A stretch of DNA of 50,871 nt, filler included, from Jimgerdemannia flammicorona (Eukaryota), in the NCBI GenBank assembly GCA_003990765.1. It is 2 parts of 2 records of this genome, joined end to end, with 100 filler letters (N's around TTAATTAATTAA, not from the genome) between each part and the next. Parts side by side here need not be neighbours in the genome. Positions count along the whole stretch, not along the records: positions 1 to 25,388 come from RBNJ01000838.1; 1 more part is not named here. One strand, 5' to 3'. Below, piece by piece: positions 10,076-38,095 of this stretch. Under the pieces are notes generated by a model. That model ran no database searches. It saw only the letters and a program-made list of their open reading frames with translations, and was not told the DNA's origin. The translations under genes were made by a program, and so were the position numbers. Position 1 is the first letter of the stretch, and each line of letters starts with the position of its first letter.

Positions 10076-13001
10076 ATGTCCTACGCTATCACGAGAGCCC
10101 GCTCGATGTTAAATCCTCAGCCAACCCCTGTTCCGATTAGGCTCAACGCCGACGCCGACGCAGAGGCCAACGCCGAAAGCTCGTCGGCTGACTTTCCCAC
10201 CCAAGTCATGGCAAACCATCACTCGAGAACGGTGCCAGAGGAGAATATGCACGTTCAACGGAAGAGGTGTGATAGCCGCGATTACGAAAGGTTCGGTAAG
10301 TGTCGTACCAGTACAAGGAAAGCCACCGGTGACACTTGTCGATTTCAAATGTTCCGGGCCTTCGACATTATTCGCACCCCGCCGGATACCGCCGGAGAGG
10401 CCGGAGCAATTTCTGCAACCACAGCGCCAAAGAGGACCGCTCAACTCGCCAAGATCAAGAACTTCGCCCCTACCCCGCTTTTCGTGTCGTCTTCCGCGCC
10501 CGACCCACAATACCGGATCGGGAAACCCAACCGGTCGACAATTCGGGGCCTCGCGCGCACCGTCGAAACATTTATACGCAGCACCATCGCTTTGTCGTTC
10601 AAAGCCATGCTCCCAAGAGAGCTGGTCCATATCAGAGGTGATCAGTGCTTCCGGAGGCCGTCGGCACCATATATGCGACACCTATGTGACTACTGCCTCA
10701 CACCGATATTCTATTCGTATTGGACGTGCTCCTCGTGCGGTGCGGAGATGAGTGTGGATTGTTATGACGCATGGGACAAGGGCGGCGTTGCCAGAGCGTC
10801 GAGGTGCTCATTGGATAGGGCCCACATTGAAATTCAGATGCTCCGTATGAGCAAAATTATGAATGAGACCCTAGAAGAGATGTGGAGGGCCGTTGCCAAC
10901 ACCGGAACGATGCAACGAGAATCGGAGATTGGATGGGAGGAGGAGATCTAGGTGGAAGAAAGTGTCATATTGGAAGGCACCGTCGCCAACACTGGAACGA
11001 TGCAGCGAGAATCGGAGAGCGAATGGGAGGAGGTGGAGATGGTGGAAGAAAGCGTCGAATTGGAAGGCACCGTCGCCCCGATCGCAGCCGGGTCTTTTGA
11101 GTCTTCGTCGCATATGAGGCTCGACAACATACCGAGATCGACGACGGGAATATCTTCAACCGTCAATAAGGATATTTTCTCATCTTCCCTCTCGGTAACT
11201 CAATCATCTAAATCCATTGTCGAATATCCGTGCTGCTCGCCATCTATGCACCCGACCTCACCGTCGCTGTTTCAACAGCCGCTCCTGCGCACGTCATCAC
11301 AACACTCGCACCCCACATCGCCGCTGCAACAGATACAACAGCTTTCATCTCATCCGCAGTTGCCCTCTTCACGTACGTTTCTCCACGCGTCAGCCTCTTC
11401 TGTTACCTTGGCTCAGTTCCAGAAACATTGGCGCCAGGGCGAAGCCGTGATGTGCTCCGTGTGAGTAGAATAGCCTGGACGCCTGACTACTTCACTAAGC
11501 AGTACGGCGCACGCGAAGTTGAGATCATCGATTGCGAGACCGGGATCACGGCTTCCAGTACCGTCGAGCTACTTTTGGGGGGTTTGAAGACATCTCCAAA
11601 AGAGAAAAACATGACAACGGCAAATACAAGGTGTTAAAATTGAAGGTGGGATGTCGGATATTGTAAATTCCGTATAGTGACTAACTATCGGACATTTTGA
11701 TATAATGTATAGGATTGGCCCCCAAGACAGGACCTCAAAGACGAATTCCCGGACCTCTACGAGGACTTCATGACCGTCCTCCCCTTCAAAGACTATACTG
11801 GCGATAATGGCGTCCTGAACCTAGCTTGCAGGTTACCCGACACGTTCGTCCCGCCAGACCTAGGCCCCAAGATGTACATTGCGTACGGGTCAGACGACGG
11901 CGAGGAAGGAAAGGGTACGACTAATCTACACTGAGACAAGGCTGACGCCGTCAACATAATATTTTACTCGTCGGCCGTAGACCAAACGTCGGACCACAAG
12001 AAGGTCGCAGCCGCCGTATGGGACATCTTCCCTGCGGACGACCTACCGAAGATTAAAGAATTCGTCAACGTACTTGCCAAAGAGGTAAAGAACAAGCATA
12101 TGGCCGATCCAGTCCACGACCAGTGGATTTCCTTTGATGCCAACCACCGACAGCGGCTCTGGGAGGAGTACGGAGTACGTCCTTGGCGCATCTACCAAAA
12201 TCCGGGAGACGCCGTCTTCATCCCCGCCGGGTGTGCGCACCAGGTGAGAAACTACGCTTCTGCCGTAAAATGCGCGATGGATTTTGTAGGCCCGGAGAAC
12301 GTTATGCGGTGCGCGGAGCTCACGAAGGAGTTTAGGCTCATGGGCCAGAACAACGCAAGGAAGAGAAAGAGGATGTGCTGCAGCTTAATAATATTCTGTT
12401 TTTCGCATGGATATCTTGCGATCAGTTCTTGAGCTCCGGAACGGAGGATGGTGGGGACGGCGAGGAGCCGATGGTGGTCGGGCGGGAGAGCATTGGTGGA
12501 AAACTGGTAACCGAGATATCGTGGGTTGAGTTGGAGGACGAGAGGCTGGTGAGACGACCGAAAGGGAAGAACATGGCCGAGACTTCGATGAAGCCTCAGT
12601 TAGAAAGGCTGCACGCCGTTACGAAGAGAAAGCGATCCCGGTCTGTCGCGGACAACAACGAAGATGAAGAAAGCTCCAGTAATAGAACGACCAACATGGC
12701 AACACCTGAGGCGAGGAAGAAAGCGAGGAGCGCAGTCTCACAAATGCCGGGAGAGCAGCGAATGATTTCGACGAGAAAGCGCTCCCGCTCTCTCCTCGAA
12801 CACAGCACGGCGAGGGGAGTTCCGTCGATACGGTGGCACCGGAGTCTCGGAAGAGAGCGAGGACCGCGCAGTCACCGAAGTGCCCTGTGTCGGCCGTCGA
12901 AGTTCGCAAGTGCCGACAGAAAGGGGAAAGGGGGCACGGAAGCCGAAAACGCAAGTAATGAAGAAGAGCGAGGAGGAGGGTGTGGATGTCCCGGCGAATG
13001 A
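10076..13001 (+). pseudogene. KDM3/JMJD1-like JmjC histone demethylase pseudogene (paralog of 16648-19923)
   Basis: Colinear with the intact gene: C6 finger (CDYC..WTCSSC..DCY), LKLK|DWPP split by intron 11646-11712, DLGPKMYIAYG, IPAGCAHQV. Disabled by TAG 10949-10951, frameshifts near 11450, 11570 and 12365, and TGA 11932-11934 inside the HxD motif. Confidence 0.92.
10891..11077 (+). repeat. 90-bp tandem duplication inside the pseudogene
   Basis: CGTTGCCAACACCGGAACGATGCA.. at 10891 and CGTCGCCAACACTGGAACGATGCA.. at 10981. The intact paralog has only one related segment. Confidence 0.9.
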
Positions 13002-13949: not shown

Positions 13950-14680
13950 CTCTCCCCCTTATACATCTCTCCATTCCTCGAACTCGCCCTCTTCTTTGAA
14001 CTCTCGCACTTCTACGAACTCTCACAAGTCCACCATTAATCTGACCGTAAATCCCAATCGCGATCCTCAAACTTCCCAACTTAAAATATTTACGCGTAAG
14101 TTCATTTATTTCCTTGAGAACTAGCGTGCAGAAATGGATGGCAGGACAGGAGCACAAAACTTCAAAACTCCTATAGCCCCTGAAGTCATTCCAACATGCT
14201 TCCATTACTCCTTACCCGTCATCGATCGACTAACAAGAGTCGCTTGTTTTATATTCATGTTAAAACAATCTGTTACTCATCATTATATTACTGCTATATT
14301 GTCTTCCATTAAAAGGTCTGTCCGCTGTCTCTTGCGGTGAAAAGTAGAGAACATTGCGGCAAAAACATCTCGACCTAAAAATCTTCAAGCGTGGTGGAGA
14401 AGAGCGTGATAACACTAGGATGCACCCATGTTCGTTATCATTTAAGGCTCATGTACGAATTTTAGCCTGCAGCCATTGAATGGGTATTGTGTCGATGCAT
14501 TGCGCGTGTGTTAGCATGGGTACCACATCTCCGGCTATTCGCAACTGCCGGGGAGCGTACTGGTGGTGAAAAGTGCGAACGATTGTTATACGACTCGTCT
14601 ACTTCGCCATTGATGATTTGCGCAATTCTGGCGCGCTGTGAATATATGACCAACAGAAATCCCGCTTAGGTTTGTTTCTA
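13950..14680 (+). repeat. Dispersed duplicated segment, copy 1 (copy 2 at about 40110-40782)
   Basis: Shared colinear blocks ACGCGTAAGT, ACTAACAAGAGTCG, CACATCTCCGGCTATTCGCAACTGC, TACTGGTGGTGAAAAGT and GGTTTGTTT. Confidence 0.85.
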
Positions 14681-16524: not shown

Positions 16525-16532
16525 TGACGTCA
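16525..16532. promoter_or_regulatory. CRE/ATF-type palindrome TGACGTCA upstream of the JmjC gene
   Basis: Perfect TGACGTCA about 120 bp before the ATG, followed by an A-tract and a pyrimidine-rich leader. Function is inferred only. Confidence 0.3.
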
Positions 16533-16647
16533 AACAGAAAAAAAAAAAAATATCAGTGTTTATAGCGTTCGCGTCTGGCCTCCAGATATTTTCTTTATCT
16601 TTCTTGTCTTACATCCAACCCTCTTCCACTCAACAAGTGATAACACC

Positions 16648-19600
16648 ATGAAGACAAGATCCCAACTCTCGTACACCCCATCCACAACTGCCACGCGTTC
16701 CACGACACCTTACACCTCGGCGACCTCCAGTGCTCAAGCCCGTCCCGTGGTTAGTACGACGTTGTACCCTGCTGGCGCTATTACGACAGACTCCACCACG
16801 ATGCCCTCTACCCCGACGCGTTGCACTTCGACGGAGTCCACTACATCACGCTCCACGACTAAGAGGAAGCGGAGCAACGAGGACACGGTCGAGGAGCCTG
16901 AGAGGAATAGAGGTACGGTGAAGAGGGTGAAAGGAAAGACTACGGCGCTTAATCCGTCGGACTACCGAGACGGCTCCCCCTCCTCAGAGCCCGATGTCGA
17001 CGATACGATTAGGCAAAGGCACACCGTCGAAAAGACTAGCAGCTGCCGCCGCTCCGCCCGTGTTCGCATTTCTCGGTATCAAAACCTTGACCTTGAAGAG
17101 ATGGCGAGGTCCGTGTTCACATTTGACTCCGGTAAGCAACCACCGCTCGGACACCAGCCTCACGGCACCAAGCGCCAGCGAGACACGCTCCATGTCGTAA
17201 GTGGCATCGACCTCGGCCCAAAGCGGTGCCGGTACGACACCACGGACCTGCCTGCAGAGGTCATCACACACCAGCAGGCCGTGGAAACCGCAAGAAGGGT
17301 GCCGAAAGAGAGACTTCACGTCCAACGTAGCATGTGTGCGGCGAAAGCCTACGAGATGTTCGGCAAGTGTCGTCCGTGCACAAATGAGGAAGCCGATTGC
17401 CTTTTTAAGGATTTCCGTGCTTTCGAACTCATTCCCACGCCACCGAACACCGTCGGCGAGGCATCGACGGCGGTCGTCAGACTGCAAGAGAACTCGGTCT
17501 TCGCACCTGTCCCGTTTTTCGTGTCGTCCATCATGCCCGATCCGCAGTACCCGATCGCGGAACCCAAGCGGTCGGCCAATCCAAAGTCCGCGCACATCAT
17601 CGAGGCTTTCGTTCGGCGCACCATCTCCGGACAGCTAGAAACTATGCTCGCTCGGGAGCTAGTTCATCTTAAGGGTGATGAGTGCATCCGGAGGTTGCCG
17701 ACACCCTTTGCGCGGCATACGTGTGATTGCTGTGGGACGACCATCTTCAACTGCTATTGGACATGCTCGGCGTGCAGCGCGGAGATGTGCCTCGATTGCT
17801 ACGATGAATGGGATGAAGGTGGCGTCGCGGAAGAATCGGGGAGCTCTTTCGGCGAGTGCTCGCTCGACCGGAAACACACAAAAGTCCAGATGCTTCGAAT
17901 GACGAAGCTTTTCAAGGAGATACTGGAAAAGGTCGAAGCCAGGAGCGCGCAGTGCAAGAGGAGAGAGTCGGAGCGCGGAGAGGAGGAGATGGAAGAGGAA
18001 TTGGAGGAGGTGGAGTACGTGGAATTGGAAGGTACTGTTGCCCCAATGGGGGGTGGATCTTTCGCTAATATGCCGAGATCGACGACGGGAACCTCTGACC
18101 TCGGGAAGACACCGACTTTCCAGCGGGATATTCTTTCCTCATCGGCCGTCTCGCCAAACCACTCACCCTCCTCCCTCCAGTATCTCTACGACTCGGCCAC
18201 CAAGGTTCCCCTGGAAAGGTTTCAGGACTATTGGCGCCGGGGCGAGGCCGTGGTGATTAGCGACGTCCTAAGGGAAGGTGGAATAGCTTGGTCACCAGAC
18301 TATTTCATTAAGAATTACGGTACACACAAAGTCAACGTCATCGATTGCGAGACTGGCGAATCGATCCCTAGTACTGTCGCAGGATTCTTTGAGGGGTTTG
18401 AAGACGTCTCCAAGAGAGACAAACATTCCGACGGCAAATACAAGGTGCTGAAATTGAAGGTGAGTAGGTGGGTTGGGATTATGGATGTTGTTGGGGATGG
18501 ACTATGGATATATATTCAATAAGAAAATTGGACTAGTGAATATATAATAATTAATTAATTGGCATTTTTTTGATTTAATGCATAGGATTGGCCTCCTCAA
18601 CAGGACTTTAGAGACGAATTCCCGGAACTCTACGAGGAATTCATGGCTGCCCTCCCTTTCAAAGATTATACAGGCGATAACGGTGTCCTGAACCTAGCGA
18701 GCCGCCTACCCGACGCATTCCTCCCGCCGGATCTAGGTCCCAAGATGTATATAGCGTACGGATCGGACGACGGCGAGAAGGGTAAGGGTACGACAAATCT
18801 GCACTGCGACATGGCGGATGCCGTCAATGTCATGTTTTACTCATCGGCTGTAGATCAGACTTCCGACCACAAGAAGGTGGCGGCCGCCGTATGGGATATC
18901 TTCCGGGCCGAGGATCTCCCTAAAATCAAAACGTTCCTCAAGGCATATGCTCTCGAAGTAGGGTACAATGACTTGGTCGACCCAGTCCACGACCATTGGA
19001 TTTACCTTGACGCCAACCTCCGACAGCGTCTCCTGGAGGAGTACGGAGTACGCCCTTGGCGCATCCACCAAAATCCGGGGGACGCCGTATTCATTCCCGC
19101 CGGGTGTGCGCACCAGGTATGCAACTACACCGCTGCTGTCAAATGCGCCATGGATTTCGTAAGCCCGGAGAATGTTGAACGATGCGCGGAGCTTACGAAG
19201 GAGTTTAGATTGATGAGCCGGATCGATCCGAAGAGGATAAAGGAGGACGTGCTGCAACTTAAAAATATTCTTTTTTTCGCGTGGGCATCTTGTGATCGGT
19301 TCTTGGAGTCAGGCGAAGAACGTAGTGAGGACGGCGAGGAGGAGACCGCAGCGCTAGAGCAGGAAAGCATTGGCGGAAAACTGATAACGGAGGTGCCGTG
19401 GGTTGAGATTAAAGACGAGCGGATGCTGAGACGAGCGAAGGAGAAGAGGGAAGCTGAGAAGAGCAAGAAGTCTACGTCCAAAAAACAGAAGACGATTTCG
19501 ACGAGGAAGCGTGCTCGTTCTACCGTCGACGACGGGGACGGCGAAGGAAGTTCCAGCAACATAGAGCCTGCGCCGAAGAGGAGGTTAGGCCGGCCGCCTA

Positions 19601-19923
19601 AGGATAGGAGCATGGAGGAGGGTGTGGATGGTATAACAAAGAAGTCCTCGCTTGTCAAGAGGGGGAGAAACCCACCGACGATTAACGAAGAGAATGCAGT
19701 CGGTGAAGGTAGAGTGGAGGATGAGTGCGCGGCTGTCGATCTTACGCCGAAAATGAAGCTGGGGAGACCACCCAAAAATAGGAGCGCAGAAGAGGTGCGA
19801 GGAGGGACGGCCGAACCAAAAAAAAAGGTGAATAAGTCGAAGAGGCTACCGATGGAAGCTGGTGGTGACGATGAGGAAGGCGAGGTCTCTGGAAAAAGAA
19901 AAAAAAAAAAAAATCGCTGGTGA
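16648..19923 (+). CDS. KDM3/JMJD1-family JmjC histone demethylase (likely H3K9me1/2), join(16648..18459,18586..19923), 1049 aa
   Basis: Removing the phase-0 intron 18460-18585 (GTGAGT..CATAG) restores LKLKDWPP. C6 finger CDCCGTTIFNCYWTCSACSAEMCLDCY. Fe(II) ligands in TTNLHCDMADAVN and IPAGCAHQV. Also PDLGPKMYIAYG and DFVSPEN. Two GRPPK AT-hook-like motifs and a basic NLS-like C-terminus. Confidence 0.95.
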
Positions 19924-20560
19924 AGGAAATAATGGCGCTGGAGGAGGCATCACGAGATAAGGAAACGTCTATGAAAGAAACTAATTTATGATGCAGATGT
20001 CTATGGTGAAGGAACCCATTGATTTCGAGCAAGGAAGGTCCAAGGTCTGAAGGGGAAATCTGTTTTGGGCACAATCATTATTTGCAGGATAGCTCGCAAC
20101 GGGAACTATCGTAATTTGATTGGCAATGAACTTGTCTCTGTTTTTATTTTTATTTTCTGCTTCTTGGTTTTTAGTATATCTCAGTCCTTTTTGGTTTTCT
20201 GTTTTATGGTTTTCTGTGAATGTCCCTGCACACAATATATGGATTCGTCTTAGGTTGTGCAAGTATGAATTATGTTCGTATGTCTGTGACGTTATTAATT
20301 CTATCCATCCGACTTGCCAGGACTTATATTATGACAATAATAAATAAAAATACTCAAGCACTGACAGTGAAAATCTACTTACTCTTGATTAACACCACCG
20401 ACTGCACAATCAGCAGAACGCACTACAGTCATCAGCACCACATTTTGGGCTACCTATTTGGCCATAACTTATATCAATTAGGTGCCATTCGAATCACATT
20501 TACCATGCTGACATCTTTCTCCGCTACAATTCACGTTACACACAGAAAGGTATTAAGGCA

Positions 20561-21334
20561 ATGTCAACCAGCAAGCAAGCAGATGCGCATACTAGGTCAG
20601 GTGGACCTGGGGCCTTTGACTGGCAACATGTCAGACAAAGGTATGGGCTTGGGATGGGGTCTTTTGGTGGTCCGAGTGGGCAAGGCAGCTTGGGCTGTGG
20701 AAGTGGTGCTGGTGGTGGAGCTGGAGGGCATGCAGGGAGGAGCTTTGTGGACATGCTGAGGAATGGTAGTTGGCTGGTGGGAACCTGGGGTGGGCAGGCA
20801 GGAGGGAAGGGGAAGCAGAAGGTTGGGGAGGCTGGAGGAGCTGGAGGAGCTGGACCTCAGCCAGTGGGTGGTAGGGCTGGTGGGGTGGCTGCTGGGAGTA
20901 GTGGTGGGACTGCTGATAGTAGCATGACTGGAAATCTGAAAAAACATCCAGATGTAACTGCTGATGGTGGGGCTGGGCAGATGGGCCCAAAGTGGAAGGG
21001 AGACCTGGCTGATGGTGTGACAGGGCTAGCAGTGGCACTGTTACTCAAGAAGTTGATTTCAGAGTTTGCAGCTACCTTGTGCTTCAGGGGCTTGGTGGTG
21101 CCTGCAAGGATGGTCCTGGGGCTTGTTTCACAGCAGGTGGCTGGGGCAGCCTCAGTGAAGTTCCTGAAGGGGCTGGAGGGGGTTGAGGTGGGCTTTGAGG
21201 AGGTGGGCCCACTGGATGAAGTGCTGAAGGCTAGAGTGGTAGTCAGGGAAGTTGTGGTCCCTATGGTGTAATGCCTTAGGTGGGACCCCAGGGTAGTACA
21301 GTTGCTGATAAAGGGGGTGCCTATGGTGATGAAG
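20561..21334 (+). mobile_element. LINE 5' fragment (ORF1 N-terminus), interrupted by an LTR element
   Basis: Translation (..DLADGVTGL..LLKKLISEF..TLCFRGL..VKFLKGLEGVEVGF..) is homologous to the ORF1 copies starting at 44027 and 45182. Homology stops abruptly at TGTAAG 21335. Confidence 0.85.
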
Positions 21335-23394
21335 TGTAAGAGGGTTACTTTTTAGGGTGACCGTTACATAGTTCTGGAAGGGTTTTCGGAAGTTCTGGAT
21401 GCTCTGGAAGACTGTTTTCTTTTGGTCAAGATCAATTTCATATGGAGTATGTCCTCTATGCTTATTGATTTCAAGATCGGATTGACGTCTCAACCAAAGT
21501 CCTTTTTCAGACTAGTTCTGGATGTTCAGGATTTTCCATATTTCAGGAAGTTCAAGAAACTAAGACCAGCTTAGTTGAATTGGCATATCACTGCAGACAA
21601 TACCCAATTAGGAAATTTCGTGACAGGGTTAGGAGTAAGACCTAACAGGGAGCAGATTTACTTAAGAGTGGTTTGTGGGTTATGGAATAGGTTTATTTGC
21701 TATTCATGATATTGCTATACTAGGAGTATTTGTGTGAAGGGGTATTGTGGAGAAGTATTCAGGAATGTTCTTGTGTATTCGAGTCTGAGATTCTGAGGTC
21801 TGGGGGAGGGGATATTTATACTAGTGAGGGGCTATCTGGACTATGCTAGATATGGATGTAGCACTAAATACTTTGCTGAGTCAGAATGCAGTCATGTAGT
21901 ACAAGTGTGATCTGACATGTCAAGAGATTATCTGACTGCTGAGTCAGTTCACAGTCACGTCATACAATGCTAATCTAACTATACTATGACTGCTAGGCTA
22001 TTTATGGGTTTAGGCGCTGTCTGGGTAGTCTTCGATGACATCACCATCAATGACATCATCTCTGATAAAGTAGTCATCTAGGAAGAGTGGTTCACAGATT
22101 ACTTCTCCTTGTTCACTGAGGTAGTAATACATTGGGACTTTGTCTCCATCTCACAGGATAGCATCGTCTGTCTCATAGGCTGAATAAGGTGTTGGTGGGC
22201 AAAGGATGGGTATATTGTCTTCGCTTTCATCAGATTCACTGTCTGCGTACCTTCTATAGGTTACAGCACTATGGGTTGCAGGATTGTAGTAAGCTGGCAG
22301 CTGTGGTTCATGTCGCTCATACTCAGGTGGTGGAGTGGTTGGTTCAATCTCAAGGATTGTCTGGAGGTACAGATTATGTTCTCTGGTCTCTTCATTGTAG
22401 TTGAAGTAGTCGGGGATGAATGCGAGTTGGTATTCGTGCCAGTGGTCATTGTCCCAATAAGTCTCGTATGCAGTTATGAACTGTTGTAAGTTCATCAGCA
22501 AGTTTGGTGGTGTGATCAGAGTTGGCAGAGATCCTAAGCAGAGGTCATATTGGCATCAGAGGGATCATTGTCTTCTGCCTCATCTTTGTCAAAGTGGATT
22601 ATATCATAGACGTCCTTTATGGCATATCTGACTTGAGGCATTTGCAGGATATGGTCATCAGGGTGTGGGAAGGTTCTGTCTGTAGTCTGGATGTATTCGA
22701 GGTACTTGTGGTTGAGTTCTTATATCATGTCATCGATTTGGCCGTAGGACAGGGTAGCAACCATTTCGCTGGTAGTGACTTGGAGGCGAGGAATAAAGGT
22801 GTTGTACTCATAGAAGAGTTCTTGATGTTTGCGGGCAATGAGCTTCTGGTGTTGAGACATCTGGGTAATGTCTGTATCATGGTGGTGTTTGACCATGTCT
22901 TCCAGGAGGCAGCCAATCTGGTAGTAGCTTGAGATTTGTCCAATTTGGTGGGCCTTGCTAAGTATGTTCAGGGTGTTCCATCAGGCTTCCACAAAGTAGA
23001 GGGGTGCCAGGCTATGGATATTCATGAGGGGCAGAGGGGGTGTAGCTCAGTTGATAATGGCATTCCAAATGTCAGCACAGATGCGGTTATAGATCTCAGT
23101 GGTCATGTTTGTGTGTTTGGAAGTTGTGGTTGTTATTTGTTTTGGTTCTCTGATTCGACGCATCTCGGTGCTCAGTATATATACATTTGGTCCTGATTGG
23201 TAAGATTCCGTTTGTGTAAATCTTGTGTTCTGTAACTTCATATTGACTCAGCTTTGTGTGCTGTGACTTCAGTTTGACTCAGCTTTGTGATCAAGCAGGT
23301 GATTTCCAGATTTGTTCAGAGGTCGTGTGTAATTTTGGTGGCTTGTTCAGAGGTTGACATGTAATTTCAGTAGCTTGGAGGTTGTATGCTTACA
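21335..23394 (-). repeat. 3' LTR of element A (2060 bp)
   Basis: Termini TGTAAG...CTTACA. Starts immediately after the PPT and ends at the LINE junction. TATAAATA at 21820-21813, AATAAA at 21697-21692, and a 63-bp-spaced repeat containing TGAGTCA (21874, 21937). The 5' LTR is not in view. Confidence 0.75.
22010..23106 (-). pseudogene. LTR(U3)-embedded accessory ORF A, unknown function
   Basis: Read-through translation MTTEIYNRICADIWNAIIN*ATPPLPLMNIHSLAPLYFVEA*WNTLNILSKAHQIGQISSYYQIGCLL..QKLIARKHQELFYEY... Stops are TGA/TAA, consistent with C>T. One frameshift near 22560. Acidic tail. Confidence 0.75.
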
Positions 23395-23410
23395 ACTCTC
23401 CCCTTCTTAG
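23395..23410 (-). other. Polypurine tract of element A
   Basis: Minus strand reads GAGGACGTCGAAAG-CTAAGAAGGGGAGAGT directly before TGTAAG. Confidence 0.8.
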
Positions 23411-23819
23411 CTTTCGACGTCCTCATCGGGGCCTTCTAATTTATTCTAGTGTTGTTACACCATTTGGGAGGTCAAAAGTCTGGTAAGATCCATTTTCTCA
23501 GAAAGTGGCATGCTTGTAGTACAGTTGCCTAATGCTTTGGATTCACACGTTAAAGGGTCGTGTGTTCAATGCCATATGCCAGAAGTGATTCTGATGTCAT
23601 TCACTGCTGGAGAATTTCCTCTAAGGAATCTTCTTAAATGTCTATGCCTTGTTTCCCATCAGTAGTACAGAGAGAATAGGCTTGCTTTCAGTTTTGCTAT
23701 TTTTCCAGGGATTCGGTATTCTTGTCTTGTTTTGCTGAGTTCTTGGTTTGGTTTGCAATAATTATAATGTTTGGGAGGATAATATATAGTATGTATGGAT
23801 AGGTGCGGAATATTTGGTT

Positions 23820-25370
23820 CTAGTTGTTCAAGGAATCATATTTCTGAACTAGGTTGGTAGCATTCTGGAGATTGGTCTTGGGTTCCCAGATTGCATCATG
23901 GATTAGGTAACCTTTCCATTTGACAAGGTACTCAGGATGGTTCTTGTTGCCACGTTTGTTGAGGATTTGTTCAACTTCGTACTCTTCTTCATCATTAATA
24001 ATGACAGGTGTAGGTGGTTCAGTGGTCTGGTTGGGGAATAGCTCATCATCATTCTCATTGTATCTCTTGAGACATTGAACATTAAAGACTGGGTGAATCT
24101 TAATGGTGTCCAGTAGCGCTAGTTTGTAGGAGGTTGGAGAGACTTGTGCAATGACTTCAAATGGTCCAATGAACTTGCTGTTCAGCTTTGTGAATGGTCT
24201 GTACTTGAGGTTGTCAACTCGGTATCCTCAGATGTCTAGTAGGACTTTTTCTCCAATATCAAAAGTTCCTTCTTGGCAGTGTTGGTTAACATACTGTGAC
24301 TGTTGTTCTTGAGCTCGTGATAAATTCTCAATTGTGATCTGGCTTAGATTGCACATTCGGAGTAGGAATTCTTCAATAGCTTCGACTGTGGAGAGTTCAT
24401 CGGTAGTTCGGATAAGTGTCAAAGGGGTGTTTGGGTTTTGTCCAGTATTGGCGAACAATGGGGTCATTCCAAGAGAGGCTTGCTTGCTGTTGTTATAGGC
24501 AAACTCGACTGTGGTGAGATGTTCATGCCAATCATCTTGTCTGTAGGAGACATAGTTCCTTAGCATTTGTTTCAGAGTTTGGTTCATTCTTTCGGTTTGG
24601 CCATCAGTTTCAGGGTGAAAGGCTGTGGATAGTGCAAGTTTCGTTCCAAGGTGTGCATGGAGGGCTTTCCAAAAATGGCTAGTGAATTTCGGATCTCGGT
24701 CACTGACAATGATCTTGGGAAGACCATGATAGTGGAAGATGTTGTCAAACAAGAGTGTAGCTATATCTGGTGCTGTTGCAGTAGTGGTAGTAGGCACAAA
24801 GTGGGCTTGTTTGCTGAGGTAGTCCACAAAGACAACAATTGCATCTTTCCTGTTCTTGGTTCGGGGTAGTTGTACAATGAAGTCCATAGAGATTCGTTCC
24901 CAATTTGCAGATGGTACTGGAATAGGGTGGAGTAAGCCGGGTTTTGCTAGTGTTGAGGACTTGTTTCGTTGGCAGGCATCACAGGAAGTGATATAGGTTT
25001 TGAGCTGATCTGCCATGCGGGGCCAATAGAAGTTTCGGGAGATAACTTCATAACATTTATCAAATCCTAAATGTCCAGCTGTAGGGGCATCATGACATTC
25101 GAATAGGATAGTCCTTCACAGGTCTTGGTTGTTTGGAACATACAATCTGTTCTTATAGTAGATAGCATTGTCCTTGAGTTGGTATTGATTGTACCAGGTA
25201 TGCTTGTCAGCATCATCATTGTTTAGGATTTCTTGGAGTACTTGAGCTTCTTTATCATGAACACATGCTGCAATGATTTGTTCCATGATAGTGTTGGTAA
25301 CCAAGGTCAGAGTTTGGATAACCTCTTCGATTAGTGGTCTGGAGATTACATTGGTAACAATATTTTCCTT
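23820..25370 (-). pseudogene. pol: pol 3' part: integrase (HHCC, DDE), GPF motif, chromodomain
   Basis: HDAPTAGHLG..CDACQ, ISMDFIVQLP, IVSDRDPKF, HPETDGQTER, KFIGPF, YEVEQIL..YLVKWKGY...IWEPKTNL. In-frame TGA at 25116 and 24228. Confidence 0.93.
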
Positions 25371-25388
25371 GGGGGGGGGTGGGGGGGG

Positions 25389-25488
25389 NNNNNNNNNNNN
25401 NNNNNNNNNNNNNNNNNNNNNNNNNNNNNNNNTTAATTAATTAANNNNNNNNNNNNNNNNNNNNNNNNNNNNNNNNNNNNNNNNNNNN
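25389..25488. other. Assembly gap / contig-joining spacer
   Basis: N44-TTAATTAATTAA-N44, a linker with stops in all six frames. Confidence 0.97.
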
Positions 25489-25812
25489 CAGAAATTATAG
25501 ACTTTTGGAGACCATTATACTATACAGAGATCATCATGCAGAAATTGCATAAGAAAACTGCCAAATTGCAGGACCATTATATATAAGGAATGACCACACT
25601 ATACACAAATCACTACTATACTCAAGAACCTATCTCAATAAGGAAATCACTCACAGATATCTAGCTTTTGACTATTATATCACTAAATACCAACAAGGAT
25701 ACCAGAAATCTTAGAACAATTTATTACTTTTAACAAAGTAACTGAGGGCTCAAGCCAAACTACATCAACCCTCAATCTTGTAATTTGTCTCCATTGAGCC
25801 AGGTATATTATA
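25489..25812 (+). repeat. 5' LTR of element B (3' part only)
   Basis: Aligns with 34407-34824. Differences are overwhelmingly C/T and G/A transitions. Confidence 0.9.
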
Positions 25813-28800
25813 TTTAGAGGCTCAATGGGAAGATTTCAAAATTAATATGACTTTTCAACTCACAAGAACCCACAGCCAAACTGAATACATTTGATATAAT
25901 ACTAATTTCTACCACTATAGGAGAATCAGTCATTACCAGTATTTGGATAGGAAGAGAAGTAATAACTTTAAGACTTACCAACTATGTAGCATCAGAAGGA
26001 TCCCAATTAGAACCAGAAGCTAGTACAGTCTAAAATCCACAACTAGATCAACTAGATAATACAGATAATCCTGTTAGAGACTTTGGAGAATTTGCTTAAG
26101 AACTAGAAGATATCATTATATAAGCCCAAAATCATGCAGCCAGATATCTCACAGCAGTTCTGCCAATCTCACCTATAGAACCTTTACCACCAGCTCTTGC
26201 AGAATTAGAAGTAGCTCCTATAAGAATACCTAGGCTCATTCCACTTCATCTAAGGTCCAGAACACTATCCTCAAGGTACCCAAGTACTCTAATTTCCAGT
26301 AGTAGTTCAGAAAGCAAATCAGAGTTGGAATCTGAATCAGAATCTGGATGAGAATCAGAATCAGAAAAAAGTGATAATGAAATGGCTACCTCATTGCCAA
26401 CCTTTACAGGATATCTGGAGGAAGATTCTAGAGAATTTCTTGATGGAATTGAAGGGACCACAGTCCTGAGGAATCTTTCAGATGAAAGGAAAATTACTAT
26501 CTATAAGGCCTAGCTCAGAGAACCAGTCAGAGGAATTTCCACTGAATAGCAAATGATCCAAATTCAGAACTGATAGTAGAAATATAAACAGTAGTATCTT
26601 TTCAGCCAGAATACATAGCCATGGTCTACTGACTTATTGAAAAATATGCAGAAAATGAAATCTGCTACAAGGCTCAAGAATCCATCATGGAGATGAAGAT
26701 GAATCTTAGAGAATCACTCAGAGTATTCTTCATAAGAATCCAGAAAAGAATGTATACAGCTGGGTTCAATACCACCAACTAAGACATTATAGGTCTGATG
26801 GTCTTCATGAATGGAATTCCACCAAACATTATCTAGCATATTCATACCCTAGGCATCAGAAGGTCCAAAGAGTAGGTAGATGCAGCTCAAGGATTTTTTA
26901 ATATCAGATAAGGAACTACCTAAAGTAATTATGACAAGAAGGATGATAAAGAAGACATTCTGGTCAAAGCCCTACAAGGACTCCTTTATGGACAAGAAAG
27001 ATCTGAAGAAAGAAGGCCAGCCAAAGAAGGAAAGAAGAGTAAGAGTAAAATTTAAGACCTTAGCTCCAGTTGGACTGATTGGTTGGATAGATTGAAAAAC
27101 TCACCACATGTGAAAATTGGAGTTATCAAGACAATAGAGGATACCCACCACAAAGAAACCAAGGTTATCCACTAAGAGATAATAGGAACTACTAGTAAGA
27201 AGAAAGAAGATATCCTGTTTGAGATAGAACCCAAGTCCAATGCTTCTACTGTAGATAATTCAGATACTATACCACTGAATGTGACAACAAAAGAGTGACC
27301 AAAGGGACTCAGAACCACTAAACTGAAGGAGTGATATAGTACAAGAAGACTGAAGCCCATCCTATTGAGGATTTTGAAGAAGCAAGCAACAGTGAAGACT
27401 ACAGTGACTTAAACTTGTACCCTACTAAGGTTACCACCCAAAAGACAGTCTATCCAGCAGAGAAAAGAAAGAGACCTATTGAAAGGTCATCCAGAAATAT
27501 CAGCAGAAGAATTGTTCAAGAAGAAGATAAAGAATATGAAGAGGAATAAGTAGAAACACCTTCTCAGACTTCTTTACTTTTTGTCCCCAAGACAAATAAG
27601 TTGCCACCAGAGGATGAAAAAATAGAACAAGAAGAACAGGAATCTGCTGCTCCAAAGCCCAAGAAGATGTATATCCCAAAGACCATATCCAGAGACATCT
27701 ACAATGAAGTCTGGCAGAAGATTCAAGAAGTCAAGATAGAAGTCCCCATTCTACAGTTCCTACAGCTGACACCAGCTAGAGTCCAAAACAAATTACTGAG
27801 AACCACTAGGTCTAGTACTGACCAAGTTCCAATCCCACAATGAGAGCCAGCTTCTATTCCTATCCAAGCTGCAGAAAGACATATCAGCACCTACCTATAT
27901 GGAGATATTGGAGGACAAAAGGCAAAAATTCTCATAGACACAGAAGCAGCTATCTGTGTCATTGCCAAATAATTCCTGGATACCCTCCAATGGCCCATTG
28001 ATGGACCATCCAACCTCAGTATCATAGTAGCAGATGGAGCCCGAACTTAGCCCCTTGGAGAAGTACAAAACATCATTATTTCTCTTAGACACATTCAGTT
28101 CTCTATCCCAAAAGCTGTTGTTGCTAAAGCTGTCACCTATGATATAATCCTTAGTACCAACTAGATGAAAGAAATGAATACAGTTGTTGATATCAGTCAA
28201 CAAGTACTCAAGTTTGACTACTGAGGTAAGAAGTACAGAGTTAAGGTGACCAGCTATGAGCAATCAAAGAAGAAAAAGAAGGTCACCATCTAGAAAGAAT
28301 ATACCAGCAGTGAAGAATCTACTATAGAAGAGGAAGAAGAATCTGAAGATAGAAATGATCCCAAACTCAATCCCCAAATTAACCTAGTAAATGACAGACC
28401 AGAAGACAATGTATGAGTCAAGAACACTATCCCCATTACTATCAGAGCTATTGCAGGAGAAATCAAAGGATGTCCCACCTGCCTCAAGAGACACAAGTGC
28501 CCTGAGCACTCCTCCAAGATCATTGGGACAAGGAATTCACCTGGCACAGCCTGCCCAGGGTGCAGAAAGAAGAAGAAGAAATGCAGACATGTTCCAGAAA
28601 CACCTGCAGCTGAAGCTGCAGAAGTATAAGTAATTTGGGAACAAGAATCATCTGAGGAAGAAGAAGCTCCTGACTAAGAAGTTCCTGAACAAGAAGTATC
28701 TGAAGAAGAAGAGGTCTCTGAACTCATTCCCTAGGATGATCTTCACTGGACACTACCTGAAGATAATGACTCTGGAATATAGAAGAAGGACTCAGCACAA

Positions 28801-29570
28801 TCCCCATCATTCCCAAAAAAGAAACTCACCAAGAAAGGGCATTTCAGCTGGGAAGATGTCTACATCAAATGGTCTTCCACTCTTTCTGAGACTACTGCTA
28901 TTAGTGCCATCTACTAGACCAGCAAGAAAGACAGAGATCCCAAAGACCAGAACCCCTGACTATAGTTACACAGTCAACTATCTTCCAAGAAGTTACTATC
29001 AGATTGCAAAGCTAATTTGGAGAACAAGGTCTTTTTACCTGAACAGAAATATATCCCTTATCTACTTTTCTCTCAACTTATGACCAAGATGGGTACTAAT
29101 TCCCAAGATAACAAGAAATCAATAACCAGAAACAGTATTTTTAAATAATGGAATATTGCAATCATAGAAGACACCCAGACTACTGAGACTGCAGAAATCA
29201 GAAGATTCACTTCAGTCATGATGTTGTAATCCACATCTTGAAGAGAGAAGATAACAGAGACCAGATCTGAAAAAGCCAGACCAAGAAGCCAGAAAGAAGG
29301 ACCCTTAAGATCTATGATTTAGGAGAAAACATCCTAACTCTTATCAGACATACAACCTGTCAAGGATGGGTAGAGGATGCCACCAACTTCATAAAAGCCC
29401 TAGACCCTATAGAAAGAAGAGAAATCAACTATCTCCAAGACCCCTCTACTGGAGCCAGATGGCCACACCTCAATCTTAGAGCCTGAAGGCTCTCTGCTAG
29501 TGGAGCTTCAGCCCTAGGACAGCCTGAACTCAGCAAGGATATTGCTCAGTATGCTCTGCTGCATTCCAAG

Positions 29571-30234
29571 GCCAAACCTCTGATAAAAGCTCACTCAGAA
29601 GATGTAGGATATAATCTTCACAGTCTGGAGGATAAATCCATCAAGTCTGGAAAAACATTTATAATCAGAACTAGACTAGCCATACAGTCACCCCAAGGAG
29701 CTTACATCCAACTGACCTCAAGATCTGGACTTGCCAGATAATAGATAACTATAGAAGGAGGAACTATTGACCTAGAATATATATAGACAAAATCAAGATC
29801 ATCCTACACAATAGTAGCACAGAATGGTACCGAATTATTAGAAGACAGAAGATTGCTCAAGTAGTCTTCATGAAGGTCAAGACCTCACAATTTTTTTTTT
29901 TTTTTTTTTTTTATAGTCACTTAGACTTTGCCATTTATTACTAGTCTATTAATATAGTTACAGTATCATCTCTCACTACCCAATCCCTATAGGGGAGTCC
30001 ACCCCCTATATCTTTATAAATAAAGACTACTTTCTCACTCATCACTCCAACCCTCCCCCCACTCTGCCTATAGATTTTCTCTACTAAGTGATGCCTCCAA
30101 CCACCCTGCAAACCCCAACCAAGCCATCAGCCTATCATAGTGTCTTCCATAAGCCCTTTCTAGTCAAGACTCCACAATTGTAAGAAGTCTCTGAACTGAC
30201 TGAAGGAACAAGACAAGCCAAAGGATTTGGAAGT
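29571..30234 (+). pseudogene. dUTPase domain between protease and RT (split by a LINE fragment)
   Basis: All five dUTPase motifs in decayed form: KAHSEDVGYNL, SRSGLA, GGTID..Y, KIAQVVF, RQAKGFGS. Confidence 0.88.
29893..30162 (-). mobile_element. 5'-truncated LINE 3' fragment inserted in the dUTPase
   Basis: Reverse complement ends AATAAA..AAGTCTAAGTGACTAT-(A)n. 17-bp TSD GTCAAGACCTCACAATT (29876-29892) / GTCAAGACTCCACAATT (30163-30179). Confidence 0.9.
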
Positions 30235-31671
30235 TTAGACAAGAAGGAAGTACATCTTCTTCAAGTCAACCACCTCAAGAGGAATGTCCCCCAGCAAGTA
30301 TACTGCCAACCAGTCAAACTGCACAAGAATCTCATCCTGGAGCCTGAAGAATAAACCATCTTTGAAATCTTTGCACCACCTGACTCCAGAAATCTTTTCT
30401 TTGAACCCAATGAAGATATCCTACACCTAGACATAGAAGAATATACATTCCCTGACAAGATAAACCCAGTACACTCCTGAGAAACCAATGAAAGTTGAGA
30501 AACCATCATCTTACCAAAAGGAATCATCATGGGACATCTGGTGTCTTTTGCCTTTTCTTAACTGAACTCATAGAGAAGTTTATGAACTAAACTTATTAGG
30601 AAATAGCAAAAGGTTTCAGAAGAAAGGAAAGGCCCCTCTGCAACCCAGGAGACAGTAAAGCCTTCCACCAATATTGGAGAAGAATTGACATCCCAACAAT
30701 AGTAACAATTAGTAGAACTCCTCAACAAATATCAAGATATCTTCACTACTGATTATGGCAATCTGCCATACAATAATCCATCATATCACCACAGTATAAA
30801 TATAGAAAACATAATACCCATCTGGCAGAAATCCTATAGAATACCCCATTACTTAAAAACATTTGAAAAGGAGCACATTCAGGAACTCTTAGATAATGGA
30901 GTCATCCGACCCTCTACCAGCCCCTGGGCCAGCCCTATACTTATTGTATCAAAGAAAGGAGAATGGAGACTCTGTGTAGATTACAGAAAACTCAATTTAG
31001 TCACTGAAAAGAATGCCTATCCTTTGCCCAGAATCAATGACCTTTTGGATCAGTTACAAGATGCCAGATACTTCAGCAGTATGAACCTTTTTGCAGGATT
31101 CCATGAGATTTCCATGGACCTTAAAGACATTCAAAAGACAGTCTTTCTTGCTCTAGAAAAACTGTTTGAATACCTCTGAATACCCTTTGGACTTTGCAAT
31201 ATACCCCCCATATTTCAGAGGATGATGAATTCAGTCTATACTCTCTTGATTCATTACTGTCTGATTATATATATAGATAATTCCAACATCTATTCAACAA
31301 ATTTCAAAGAATACCTATACCATCTAGAGGAATTCTTCAAGCTCACCTATAAGAATCACCTGAGACTCAATGCAAAGAAATACTACTTCAGGAAACAGAA
31401 ACTTGAATTTTTTGGATTCATAGTTTCAAAAAAAGGAATCTACATAGACCCAAAGAAAACTGAGAAGATCAACAATTAGCCAGTACTCAAGACCCCAAAA
31501 GAGACACTATCATTTCTGATGCTAGTATCTTACTACAGAAGGTTTATTAAGGACTTTGCCCAAATCGCTGTCCCAATCCAAGTCCTCCTTAAGAAAGAAG
31601 TATCTTACAAATATATAGAATCACAAGAGAAAGCCTTCAAAGAACTTAAGAACTACATGACCACAGCACTA

Positions 31672-31677
<6 letters not shown>

Positions 31678-31704
<27 letters not shown>
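31678..31704 (-). mobile_element. Poly(A)-only retro-insertion
   Basis: Pure T tract flanked by a 17-bp TSD CCACAGCACTAATCCTT (31661-31677) / CCACAACACTAATCCTT (31705-31721), interrupting pol. Confidence 0.8.
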
Positions 31705-33157
31705 CCACAACACTAATCCTTGTATACCTCAATCTACAGAAGCCATTCATCTTATATACAGATGCTTCCAAAGATGGCCTAGGAGTAGTTCTAGCCTAAG
31801 AAGAACCTGACCAACAATATTATGTAATAGCTTATGTAAGCTGAGCTACCAATTAGCAGCAGATGAACTATGGTAGCACCAAACTAGAATGCCTTACAGT
31901 CATATGGGCAGTCACTCTGTTCAAGCATTACTTCATCAGAAAAAGGTCCACCCTAATTACAGACCATGCAGCCCTCAAATGGCTATTCAACTATAAGAAA
32001 TCCACCAGAATTCTAGCCTGCTGGATCCTTATCCTTCAGGATTACAAAATCACTATTATCTACAAAGCAGGAAAAACTTATATCAATATTAATGTACTTT
32101 CCTGTCAGCCTCAATAAACCAGAAGAAGGGTGTCCTGAGAAACTATACTCTAAAGAAAGCTCCTCAGACCATCAAGGTACAAGAAGATCTCATCTGAAAA
32201 GAACACCAGAAAGCCCACTAAGGATAAGTAAATATAAAAGAAAAGTTATAAACAATATACCAACATTGGTCCAACCTCAGAACATAAGTCCAGGATATAC
32301 TCAAGAAATATGATACCTGCCAGAAGTACCAAGGAAGAAAGAACTACCAAGCACCACTGCAATTAATTATACCACTAGACAACATCCTTCAGAGATGGAA
32401 GTAGATGTAATTAGACCCCTATCAGTTATACTAAGAAGAAACAAGTACATTCTTATATTTGTAGAATATCTGACCAAATGACCTAAGACTTTTCCAATAG
32501 AAATTACAGATGTCTTGACTATTATAGGTCTTCTCTACAAACTCACACTCAGATATAGATCCTCAGAAGAATTCATCTCTGAGCAAGACACAGAATATAA
32601 TCATAAGTTATACTTGAATTCACAAGATCCAGCTCAAATAGACCACATCATACTACTTTCAGACCAATGGTATGATAGAAAGAATAAACTAGACCATCAA
32701 GAAAGGACTTGCCTGAGTCAATCCTACCAATTGAGACCTTTGCTTACCTGAGATCCTATGGGAAATTCAGAACACCCCTGCTACCTTCACCAAACAAAAG
32801 TCATTCAAAATGATGTTTGCCAAGAAAACCAGAACTGCTGATCATAAGAATCTCAGAGACCTCCTCAAGAAGGCAGAACAGTTATGTAATCAAGCCTGAG
32901 CTCAGATTATTAAAGCCCAAGAAAGACAAAAGAAGTACTATAACCAGAAACAGAAGGATCAGGAGATCAAGATTGGAGATCAAGTACTAGTTTGGAGAAG
33001 TATGATTGAAACAAATTTTGTTACCAAACTGGAGCCTAAATGAGAAGGACCTTAACTTGTATACAATATCAGAGGAACTAACATCTATTTAAGAAATATA
33101 GATGAACCCTCAGAATATCAGTACATATCAACTACCTCAAGATATACCTCTCCTATC

Positions 33158-33670
33158 ATGAATCAGACAATTGACCAGTGCCTTTAGACCCTTGTTCTGA
33201 GTTTATTCCAATTACTCCCAGTTTCCCTTCCACAATTCAAACAAGCCAACAGAAATCCCCTTCAATGAATCTAGACCCATTAAGAGAACCTTACCTTGGC
33301 TAGACGTTTACTGCAAGTCCACCAGCTGCAAGCCTACTATGCAATCAGAGAATAGTTGCAGAACCTCCCAATAGCAGACCTAATCTACATTAGAAACTCC
33401 ACTGGTCTCACTCAGAAAAATACCACTGCTGTAGATAGATTGTATACAATCTACAAATTAAATATTCCAGTATTGATACAGGCACAATTTCTCTTGAATG
33501 ACATTTAAAACATAAACTCTGTTACCTACTAGAGTATCATCAACCATGTTGAGATCCTGTTTCCAGAGAAAGAAGAAGAACCTATTAATTGGAGTAACTT
33601 TAATTCAAATGAAGATACTGGTTCAGATATTGATACTGAAGATGCTTATATACATTGGAATGATAACTAA
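33158..33670 (+). pseudogene. Accessory ORF B between integrase and PPT (170 codons), homolog of ORF A
   Basis: Single frame from ATG 33158 to TAA 33670 with seven internal stops, all revertible by T>C. Contains NPLQ*I*TH*ENLTLARRLLQVHQLQAYYAI(R<G)E*L. Acidic tail. Confidence 0.7.
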
Positions 33671-33710
33671 ATGATTGTCTGAGGACAGATCTTTCTTTAG
33701 TAGAGGCTGA

Positions 33711-34824
33711 TATGATGAGCAACAGAATTGTACTGCTGGAATTATAAAATAGCCACATATGTACTATATCTAGTACACTAAGCAACTATAACTATATAAA
33801 ATACCCCAGAGACAAGAGTGAATAAACCTCAGTCTGAAATTCAGAATACATTTCAACTCTGGTTCACTTTCCAATACAAAGAAGAGTCTAAAATTTAAAT
33901 CTAAAGTAAAAGACAAGTCTGCCTACTATACTTTAAGAGGAACTCTATAGCTACTACTAGAAGATTGTGAGCTTTACTATTCCATTTCCACTCTGGTCTC
34001 CTTTCTAATACAAAGCCTTAGTTTGCTTGCCAGATAAGTCTGAAGAAATCCACGAAGTTCAAGTAAAGAACTTTGCTATCTTTTAAAGAGAAATCTGCTA
34101 CATAAAGACTAAGCCACTACATTTTTGGTTCACTTGTCAGATAAGCCTAAAGAATTTACCTATATTCTCAGAGAGCTCTTAAGGAATCTTGCCACAAGTC
34201 AGTCTATTAGATATAACTTCACAGTAATCTATTTGTATAAACAAAGTCAGTCTTTGATGTAACTTGCCAAGAATCTGAGTTATTAGTTTATTTCCAGTGA
34301 GCCCGATTCAGAGAATCTGCCACCAGTATTATTCCTAGTAAGCTGATTTAGAAGAATCTGTACCATCTCTATTCCCAGTGAATCTGTATCAAATTAAGTC
34401 ATCCATCAGAAATTGTATACTTTTGGAGACCATTACACTACACAAAGATCATCATATAGAAATTATATAAAGAAATTGCCAAATTACCAGACCATCATAT
34501 ATAAGGAACCCACTACACTATATAGAGATTATCATATAGAAATCAGAGATTATTACTCAAGAAGAAAAACTGCTAAATTGTTGGACCATTATGTATAAGG
34601 AATAATCATATTATATACAAATCACTACTATACCCAAGAACTCATCCCAATAAGGAAATTGCTTGCAGATATCTAGCTTTTGACTATTATACTACTAAAT
34701 ACCAATAAGAATACCAGGAATCTTAGAATATTTTATTGCTTTTAATAAAGTAACTAGGGGCTCAAGCCAAACTACATCAACCTCCAATTTTGTAATTTGC
34801 CTCTATTGAGCCAGACACATTATA
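33711..34824 (+). repeat. 3' LTR of element B (about 1.1 kb)
   Basis: Follows a decayed GAGGAC..TAGTAGAGGCTGA PPT. Termini TATGATG/CATTATA are consistent with a mutated TGTGATG/CATCACA. The 3' part matches the 5' LTR. The start coordinate is inferred. Confidence 0.75.
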
Positions 34825-35462
34825 ATAGAAATAATTTACTAGCAATTCTAATGAAATTTACAATGAAATTGCTAATGGAAATTATATCAGAAATTTCAAT
34901 ATAGTAGTAATATATTATATATTTAGCCATAGCTCTAATCTATATAAATATTCTCTATACTGAATATATTATAACCTCAGCTCTACTTTTCTCTCTCAAG
35001 AATATAGAAGTATTCTTATCAAAGAACTCTAAGATCTAACTTATTAATAATTCTAAACTTGATTAACTTGAGATACATGTATAATATCTTTATTTGATAT
35101 AAGACTTCAAAAGTAATACTTAGATTATATCTCAATAATAGATATTTAGAACTTAGTACTTTCTCATATATAGAACTCAGAACTTAGAGTTAATTATCTA
35201 TTCAGATTATTTACAATATATTAACTTTATTAGTATATAGTTTTATTATATATATTTAATTAATAATATAATTATATAATATATTCTAAATTATAAATTT
35301 TATAGATTTTTAATAAAAAAATTTAATTATTATAAATATAAAAGAAAATATTTTTTTTTAAAAAAAAAAACTCTCTATATAAATAAACTTAAAGAGAGGT
35401 TTTTATTAGTTTATAAAATTTTATTATATATTATTATATTTATTTTTTTATAATAAATAGTA

Positions 35463-36001: not shown

Positions 36002-36081
36002 TATTAATAATAAATTAAATATAACTATTATCATGTAGTGGTCACTGAGTCCTTCAAATATACCAGATTCTTTTCAAGGTA

Positions 36082-37694: not shown

Positions 37695-38005
37695 TATATC
37701 TCTTAGACTAACTTAAGTTTGTTATAAGCAAGTTCTTATTGGAGTACCTTTCTAAGGTCTTATAGTCCTCAAACTTCTTATCTTTAACTATCTTGTTATC
37801 TCTTAGATTGTTTGCAAGAGATTGTATATAAGTAAACCAGAACTGACTTTTATTTTAAAGGAAATAAGAGAGATATTTATACAAAATATAATTCAATGGT
37901 TGCTAAGATATAAAGCTAAATATAAATTCCAATAACTAAAACAAAATGTCAGGACAGAAAAAATTACTAAGTTCCAGGGTTGGCACTGATGGTTATATAA
38001 GTATA

Positions 38006-38084: not shown

Positions 38085-38095
38085 AACCAAGAGAC

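Follow-up and report, generated by a model that had tools for sequence, protein, structure and literature searches.

We analysed a stretch of 50,871 nucleotides, filler included (hereafter the window), from Jimgerdemannia flammicorona (assembly GCA_003990765.1), of which positions 1 to 25,388 come from record RBNJ01000838.1. On the minus strand of this part, the end of a pol gene is followed by a unit of 2060 bp (21335-23394) that begins with TGTAAG and ends with CTTACA, and that we describe here as the putative 3' long terminal repeat (LTR) of a chromodomain Ty3/Gypsy element (chromovirus). Inside the unit lie the remains of an open reading frame (ORF), named ORF A (22010-23106), which would comprise 365 codons if intact. 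The ends of the unit, its depth in public sequencing runs and the loose ends of contigs from other copies suggest that it is probably an LTR with an accessory gene in its unique 3' (U3) region.

The 3' end of a chromovirus and its putative LTR

The minus-strand sequence next to the unit encodes the C-terminal part of pol. The integrase, with its zinc-binding H2C2 and core parts, occupies 24228-25115 (Pfam Integrase_H2C2, 5.2e-20; rve, 4.4e-9), and directly after it come the two domains that form the C-terminus of pol, an SH3 domain of the Tf2 type and a chromodomain (23820-24227; SH3_Tf2-1, 4.5e-15; Chromo, 3e-15), with the stop codon at about 23820. By this domain content the stretch belongs to a Ty3/Gypsy element with a chromodomain, of which it forms the 3' part, and the four Pfam matches upstream of the 2-kb unit bear out the chromovirus identity proposed in the initial annotation. 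Further upstream, two stretches of N, at 25389-25432 and at 25445-25488, cut the element. Searches with tblastn and Pfam found no gag, protease, reverse transcriptase (RT) or RNase H of the minus-strand element in the window, and the RT at 30706-31479 is part of a different element on the plus strand. The highest identity of the integrase among the proteins listed is 61%, to a metagenome protein that carries no source name; when only source-named proteins are considered, the closest of those listed are from Calcarisporiella (56%) and Haematococcus (55%).

Between the pol stop codon and the region of the polypurine tract there are 410 nt that contain no ORF, so that the unit is placed 410 bp downstream of the stop. 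The tract itself consists of 13 purines (23396-23408) and is followed by a single T and then by the TG of the unit; a polypurine tract is thus found directly upstream of the putative 3' LTR, one base before its TG. TGTAAG (23394-23389) and CTTACA (21340-21335), both read on the minus strand, form a perfect 6-bp terminal inverted repeat with the TG...CA ends typical of LTRs. An inverted match of 6 bp within 2 kb is not rare on its own (about 0.4 expected by chance). Purine runs of at least 11 nt with at least four G amount to 105 in the window, both strands together, and among those on the minus strand only one, at 23408-23396, falls within 21335-23820. The arrangement noted initially, with a purine tract next to TGTAAG and a CTTACA 2060 bp away, can be read directly from the sequence, with the run at 23408-23396 plus a T. 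The next five nucleotides beyond the LTR end (21330-21334, TGAAG on the plus strand) are a candidate half of a target-site duplication. We also considered a shorter LTR ending at about 23110 and rejected it, since only about 40 nt would be left after the TATA box for the repeated (R) and unique 5' (U5) regions; in addition, neither a CA nor an inverted-repeat end is present there.

Two promoter-like modules are arranged in parallel before and after ORF A, each with two TGASTCA sites and a TATA box 57-61 nt further on. The start of the putative U3 holds two sets of minus-strand tandem repeats, a 32-nt unit repeated 2.1 times (23312-23377) and a 31-nt unit repeated 2.2 times (23223-23289), the latter with TGAGTCA sites at 23281-23275 and 23250-23244. 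They are followed by CCAAT (23200-23196) and TATATAT (23183-23177), the latter 71 nt upstream of the ATG of ORF A, which together make a candidate promoter for this frame. The second module (21814-21962, minus strand) comprises TGACGT (21962-21957), TGACTCA at 21946-21940 and 21883-21877, and TATAAAT (21820-21814); the repeats and TATA box reported downstream of ORF A are accordingly present, at 21962-21814. The second module is a candidate promoter of the genomic RNA, with the border between U3 and R near 21790. The sole AATAAA of the LTR, at 21692-21697 on the minus strand, is a candidate polyadenylation signal. TGASTCA occurs eight times in the whole window, against 8.08 expected by chance, and four of these eight sites are within the 2060-bp unit (binomial 1.7e-4, two of the four sharing one duplication).

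ORF A: a decayed copy and its intact relatives

ORF A runs on the minus strand from an ATG at 23106 to a TAA at 22012-22010. The initial annotation had described an ORF of about 365 codons that fills the span from the LTR start to the second module. A frame of about this length does exist, but it is not open, being broken by four in-frame stops (TGA 23047-49, TGA 22981-83, TAA 22720-22 and TGA 22151-53) and by a 1-bp deletion near 22539, and it begins 288 bp inside the LTR, its ATG lying 290 nt downstream of the purine tract. The longest piece free of stops is 134 amino acids. Judged by these breaks, the copy in the window is a non-functional, dead one.

Relatives of ORF A were found among metagenome proteins. 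A search with its N-terminal 190 residues, with X placed at the stops, against 1.84 billion representatives gave three matches, two of which are true relatives (P0001 and P0002). The third, P0003 (E = 3e-8), aligned over 38 residues only and was discarded as an unrelated repeat protein. A word-indexed search with the C-terminal piece gave one match. P0002 has 128 amino acids, is encoded on a contig of 1180 bp and is 87% identical to residues 1-128 of ORF A. It has Arg at the positions of both N-terminal TGA codons, and 17 of its 128 residues differ from the window copy. Read from P0002 to the window, most of these changes turn Arg into Cys, Gln or a stop, Ala into Thr or Val, or Glu into Lys, which is the signature of CpG transitions in the window copy; the breaks in ORF A are also mostly of the CpG type. 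P0001 has 247 amino acids, comes from a contig of 998 bp and is 66% identical to residues 115-365. Where the window copy has the TAA and the last TGA, P0001 has Gln and Trp, respectively, and it is also uninterrupted at the frameshift.

Other copies of the family could be followed in the contigs of four public sequencing runs (X1, X2, X3 and X12), which were aligned to positions 20000-25388. Thirteen runs had matched, each with a share of 0.18 or less and none listed as RNA, and the top one is a soil metagenome. That X12 might be of RNA nature is only a guess, and its pattern is not taken as evidence of expression. At 22151 the other copies restore TGG (depth 349 of 353 in X1, 39.4 of 39.4 in X2 and 27.7 of 27.7 in X3), and in X1, X2 and X12 one more base, at 22539-40, brings the sequence back into frame. 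Moreover, the majority bases of at least four further sites (23055, 22956, 22946 and 22781) yield the residues of P0002. Because P0001, P0002 and other copies read through the breaks, the family carries a real orphan gene of 365 codons, of which the window preserves a decayed copy.

The protein has few recognisable features. ORF A, P0001 and P0002 match no Pfam family at the cut-off, and the latter two match none at E ≤ 1. A sub-threshold match of ORF A to DUF6827 (E = 0.032; 14.4 bits against a cut-off of 26.9) was rejected. A PDB sequence search gave no matches, and the ESM Atlas offered no usable match (pLDDT, the predicted local distance difference test score, of 0.39 for the atlas model). 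An AlphaFold2 model of residues 1-190, built from an alignment of three rows, is all-helical and poor (pLDDT 44); the N-terminal half is thus predicted to be helical. The C-terminal half is acidic and probably disordered: the last 177 residues of P0001 contain 34 Asp or Glu against five Lys or Arg, with an isoelectric point of 4.05. No host homologues of ORF A were found in the protein, Pfam and PDB searches. That the protein acts in trans as a regulator of the element family is a guess, which we hold with low confidence.

Copies of the unit in sequencing runs and the alternatives

There is no second LTR in the window and the element is cut by the assembly gap, so the evidence for the LTR status of the unit is indirect and comes from the depth and the ends of contigs in the sequencing runs. 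Depth was taken as the sum of per-contig mean depths at a likeness of at least 85%; by the caveat of the tool itself, such values are not copy numbers. The loose ends reported here were among 24 of 269 that were listed, and the aligned pieces among 32 of 6355.

In X1, X2 and X3, respectively, the depth is 82, 4.5 and 1.2 in the left flank, 967, 64 and 44 in the part of the unit that holds ORF A (21980-23419), and 355, 28 and 18 in the internal part of the element (23420-25388). The ORF part is therefore 2.73, 2.27 and 2.42 times as deep as the internal part, and 2.39, 2.48 and 2.06 times as deep as the coding bins of the internal part alone. An excess of 2.3 to 2.7 times in all three DNA runs agrees, by this proxy, with the copy number expected of an LTR, about double that of the internal part or higher. 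The depth drops between the bins 23240-23419 and 23420-23599, which within the resolution of the bins is the boundary at the purine tract. At the other end, where the depth rises above that of the left flank, the last 105 nt of the unit have scaled depths of 1206 in X1 and 62 in X2 and are on a par with the ORF part.

The loose ends of contigs also mark the distal border. Contigs of other copies diverge at the terminal CTTACA (21335-21340): at least four X12 contigs among the loose ends listed do so exactly at 21335, with flanks that are unlike one another (agreement 0.57). At least one X2 contig diverges at 21337, and its loose end of 31 letters carries TGGTAGCAGCAG (element strand) 3 nt past the LTR end. 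Primer-binding sites complementary to the initiator tRNA usually start with TGGTAGC. By its likeness to them, TGGTAGCAGCAG is a putative site of this kind. tRNA genes and Rfam families were searched in the window and neither gave any match. Both ends of the 2060-bp unit act as repeat boundaries in other copies, as the depth and the contig ends support. Depth and loose ends together are consistent with a 2060-bp LTR to which the ORF belongs; an internal ORF should show the depth of the internal part.

Several observations weigh against an LTR that carries a gene in its U3. No second copy of the 2-kb unit is present in the window (blastn with word size 7; tblastn), searches of metagenome contigs with P0001 and P0002 gave 25 and 92 pattern stretches of which none was confirmed, and searches of viral contigs with P0001 and the integrase gave no match. 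We saw no contig joining ORF A to a primer-binding site, or to any flank except the purine tract, and found neither a loose end nor a bridge at 23394/5 among the 24 of 269 loose ends and 32 of 6355 pieces listed. The depths, which are no copy numbers, could also be lowered in the internal part by a faster divergence of its non-coding DNA. Within the unit itself the depth is uneven, the stretch 21440-21980 being 2.4 (X1), 2.6 (X2) and 4.5 (X3) times as deep as the ORF part, and one X12 contig matches 21783-22071 and does not continue into the adjoining end of ORF A. The protein, furthermore, has neither relatives in a known family nor a confident fold. In a neutral simulation that allowed substitutions only and went down to 66% identity, 244 codons remained free of stops in 2.1% of 2000 runs, and gene callers list open frames only; the intactness of P0001 is hence a modest sign of constraint.

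The uneven depth bears on what the stretch 21440-21980 may be. Nearly all of the X12 signal lies at about 21435-21800, with its upper edge at about 21800. Given the excess depth and the X12 contig that leaves the end of ORF A, shorter LTR variants without the ORF may exist. Candidates for what 21440-21980 represents are thus the R region, a module that another family also has, and the trace of such ORF-less variants.

In one alternative the true LTR is shorter, and ORF A lies before it as an extra internal ORF that follows pol; the purine tract at 23408 would be there by chance. Such an LTR might, for example, have about 630 bp and run from TGTATG at 21966 to CTTACA at 21335. Additional ORFs of LTR elements are usually reported in the internal region, as far as the accessible text of the sources goes (PMC7264820; Retrosat2 ORF0), and the position would be the same as that of the extra ORFs in many LTR elements of plants and rotifers; the greater depth of 21440-21980 and the match of TGTATG at 21966 to the mirrored LTR end at four of six positions are also in its favour. 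An ORF of this kind is expected between the LTRs and upstream of the polypurine tract, and ORF A lies downstream of it. No purine tract of at least 11 nt is found on this strand from 23396 to 21335, and a shorter LTR would therefore be left without a primer site. The depth of the ORF part is 2.3 to 2.7 times that of the internal part in three of three DNA runs, where about one would be expected of an internal ORF, and the stretch of high depth stops short of the LTR end, since 21335-21439 is at the level of the ORF part. We regard this alternative as improbable.

The unit might also be an element in its own right, be it a solo LTR or a member of another repeat family with its own gene, that is nested at or adjoins the truncated end of a chromovirus which has lost its own LTR. 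Repeats are nested in this region, as illustrated by the flank 20540-21334, which is repeated in the runs, and by a second Gypsy element at 25489-34824, and the unit does have a promoter-like module and a gene of its own. A separate element would, however, need to start exactly one base past the purine tract of the chromovirus. The TG...CA ends, and the end of one other copy that adjoins a putative tRNA primer site, speak for the LTR, and none of the four plus-strand ORFs of the unit and none of the four ORF A pieces reaches a Pfam cut-off. This origin seems to us still somewhat less probable than an internal ORF.

A third possibility, and one to which we give equally little credence, is that ORF A is a decaying passenger, such as a fragment of a host gene or an older insertion, in the U3 of one subfamily, which would serve no purpose for the element and be absent from most LTRs of the family. 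It would account for the excess depth at 21440-21980 and for the X12 contig that departs from the end of ORF A; only two true relatives among 1.84 billion representatives, and the intactness of P0001 as a weak sign of constraint, are in line with it as well. A passenger is harder to reconcile with the lack of host homologues in the searches made, with a frame that two lineages, at 87% and 66% identity to the window copy, have kept open, with majority bases that restore the frame in three runs, and with a depth of the ORF part that equals that of the LTR end.

Returning to an LTR with an accessory gene in its U3, the unit would be organised as follows. The U3 would extend from 23394 to about 21790 and contain, in this order, the tandem repeats, CCAAT, TATATAT and ORF A, followed by TGACGT, the pair of TGACTCA sites and TATAAAT. 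R would start at about 21790, polyadenylation would be directed by AATAAA at 21697 or by a signal further on, near 21440, and U5 would end with CTTACA at 21335. Genomic RNA would be made from the second promoter, leaving ORF A in the 3' untranslated U3 of that RNA. The message of ORF A would arise from its own upstream module and end at the polyadenylation signal of the LTR, independently of gag-pol. Reverse transcription copies U3 to both ends of the element, and each insertion would therefore carry ORF A twice and each solo LTR once. We infer the presence of ORF A in 5' LTRs in this way, as we do both promoters, the borders of R and U5 and the function of the protein.

Genomic surroundings and comparison with known systems

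The left flank of the unit had been called an interrupted LINE (long interspersed nuclear element) at the 21335 junction. None of seven ORFs at 19984-21511 matches Pfam at E ≤ 10, and no signal of an RT or endonuclease was seen there. The label is left unsupported because the flank shows neither enzyme. The stretch 20540-21334 is moderately repeated in the metagenome runs and contains a Gly/Ala-rich frame of 267 codons on the plus strand that has no Pfam match; it thus seems to be a repeat with no recognisable LINE.

On the other side of the N gaps, a second Ty3/Gypsy element occupies 25489-34824 on the plus strand, with LTR-like repeats at 25489-25812 and 34407-34824 that are about 82% identical. 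Its LTRs are about 420 bp long, the RT at 30706-31479 belongs to it, and its start adjoins the N gaps at which the minus-strand element breaks off; it is therefore either a nested insertion or the product of an assembly join. An AT-rich zone (35000-40000; 28% G+C) contains a remnant of a DDE_3 (Tc1/mariner-type) transposase at 36927-37460.

Two JmjC (KDM3-like) genes are tandem paralogues (9983-12998 and 16528-19923) with stretches of 77-88% identity at a spacing of about 6.8 kb. The JmjC gene neighbouring the unit is nearest to early-diverging fungi, namely Calcarisporiella (65%), Rhizophlyctis (62%), Dimargaris (61%) and Glomeromycota (55-57%), and on these likenesses a fungal host is a reasonable assignment. 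Four copies of a unit of about 90 nt are found at 2230-3452; they are 65-100% identical, 250-600 bp apart, and each has a conserved pyrimidine-rich core. Finally, a direct repeat of 66 nt (92% identical) is present at 14524-14589 and 40619-40684, 26 kb apart.

Protein genes inside LTRs are rare outside a few retroviruses, and the nearest precedents are sag of mouse mammary tumour virus (MMTV) and the RNA genes in the LTRs of Cassandra. In full-text searches of the literature we came across no LTR retrotransposon whose LTR is described as containing an ORF, and such descriptions may exist in subscription journals. Like ORF A, MMTV sag is a complete accessory protein gene in the U3 of the LTR and is copied to both ends at each replication. 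The two have no sequence relation (no matches in Pfam and PDB), and neither sequence nor fold relates ORF A to any known LTR-encoded protein in Pfam, PDB and the ESM Atlas. The present case further differs from MMTV in its fungal host, in a chromovirus that lacks env, and in what appears to be a promoter-like module of ORF A's own.

Cassandra, Helenus and Ajax are described, in the accessible parts of two sources, as non-autonomous LTR elements whose LTRs contain genes for small RNAs (10.1101/2023.07.14.548913; PMC10886601). As far as those parts show, they share with ORF A a separate gene-like unit in the LTR that has its own promoter, but they are tiny non-coding elements with 5S or other small RNAs and internal polymerase III promoters, whereas here an ORF of 365 codons is found in an element of autonomous type. 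Lineage-specific orphans in Ty3/Gypsy elements are another parallel, and the excerpts available for them include the additional ORFs (aORFs) of plants, ORF0 of Retrosat2/RIRE, brtn of BcGypsy1 in Botrytis and the ORFs of rotifer elements. Retrosat2 also has long LTRs, of more than 3.2 kb according to the excerpt, but its ORF0 is internal and upstream of gag-pol, unlike ORF A; for brtn and the rotifer ORFs the excerpts state no position. A search by term of the accessible text of the plant aORF review (PMC7264820) gave no mention of ORFs located in LTRs. In fungal chromoviruses (Tcn1-like and related Ty3/Gypsy elements) pol likewise ends with an integrase, an SH3 domain of the Tf2 type and a chromodomain; in the portions of fungal LTR retrotransposon surveys that were searched by term, a 2-kb LTR with a gene is not described.

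A broader proposal, which we put forward as doubtful, is that every LTR of the family, solo LTRs included, would be a self-contained gene with an AP-1/Gcn4-type promoter, an acidic-tailed orphan product of 365 amino acids and its own polyadenylation, the protein acting in trans. This role would be, for instance, that of a transactivator of the second LTR promoter or of an antagonist of host silencing. If this is true, the element would be a 'complex' retrotransposon of an early-diverging fungus, parallel to complex retroviruses with their accessory genes, and the dosage of ORF A would rise with each insertion and survive recombination between LTRs. If confirmed, the unit would represent a protein gene in the LTR of a fungal Ty3/Gypsy element that is doubled at each retrotransposition and left behind in solo LTRs. 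Annotation pipelines that mask LTRs would overlook such genes. The family would then offer a testable case of the gain of an accessory gene by a retroelement, with solo LTRs as protein-coding loci.

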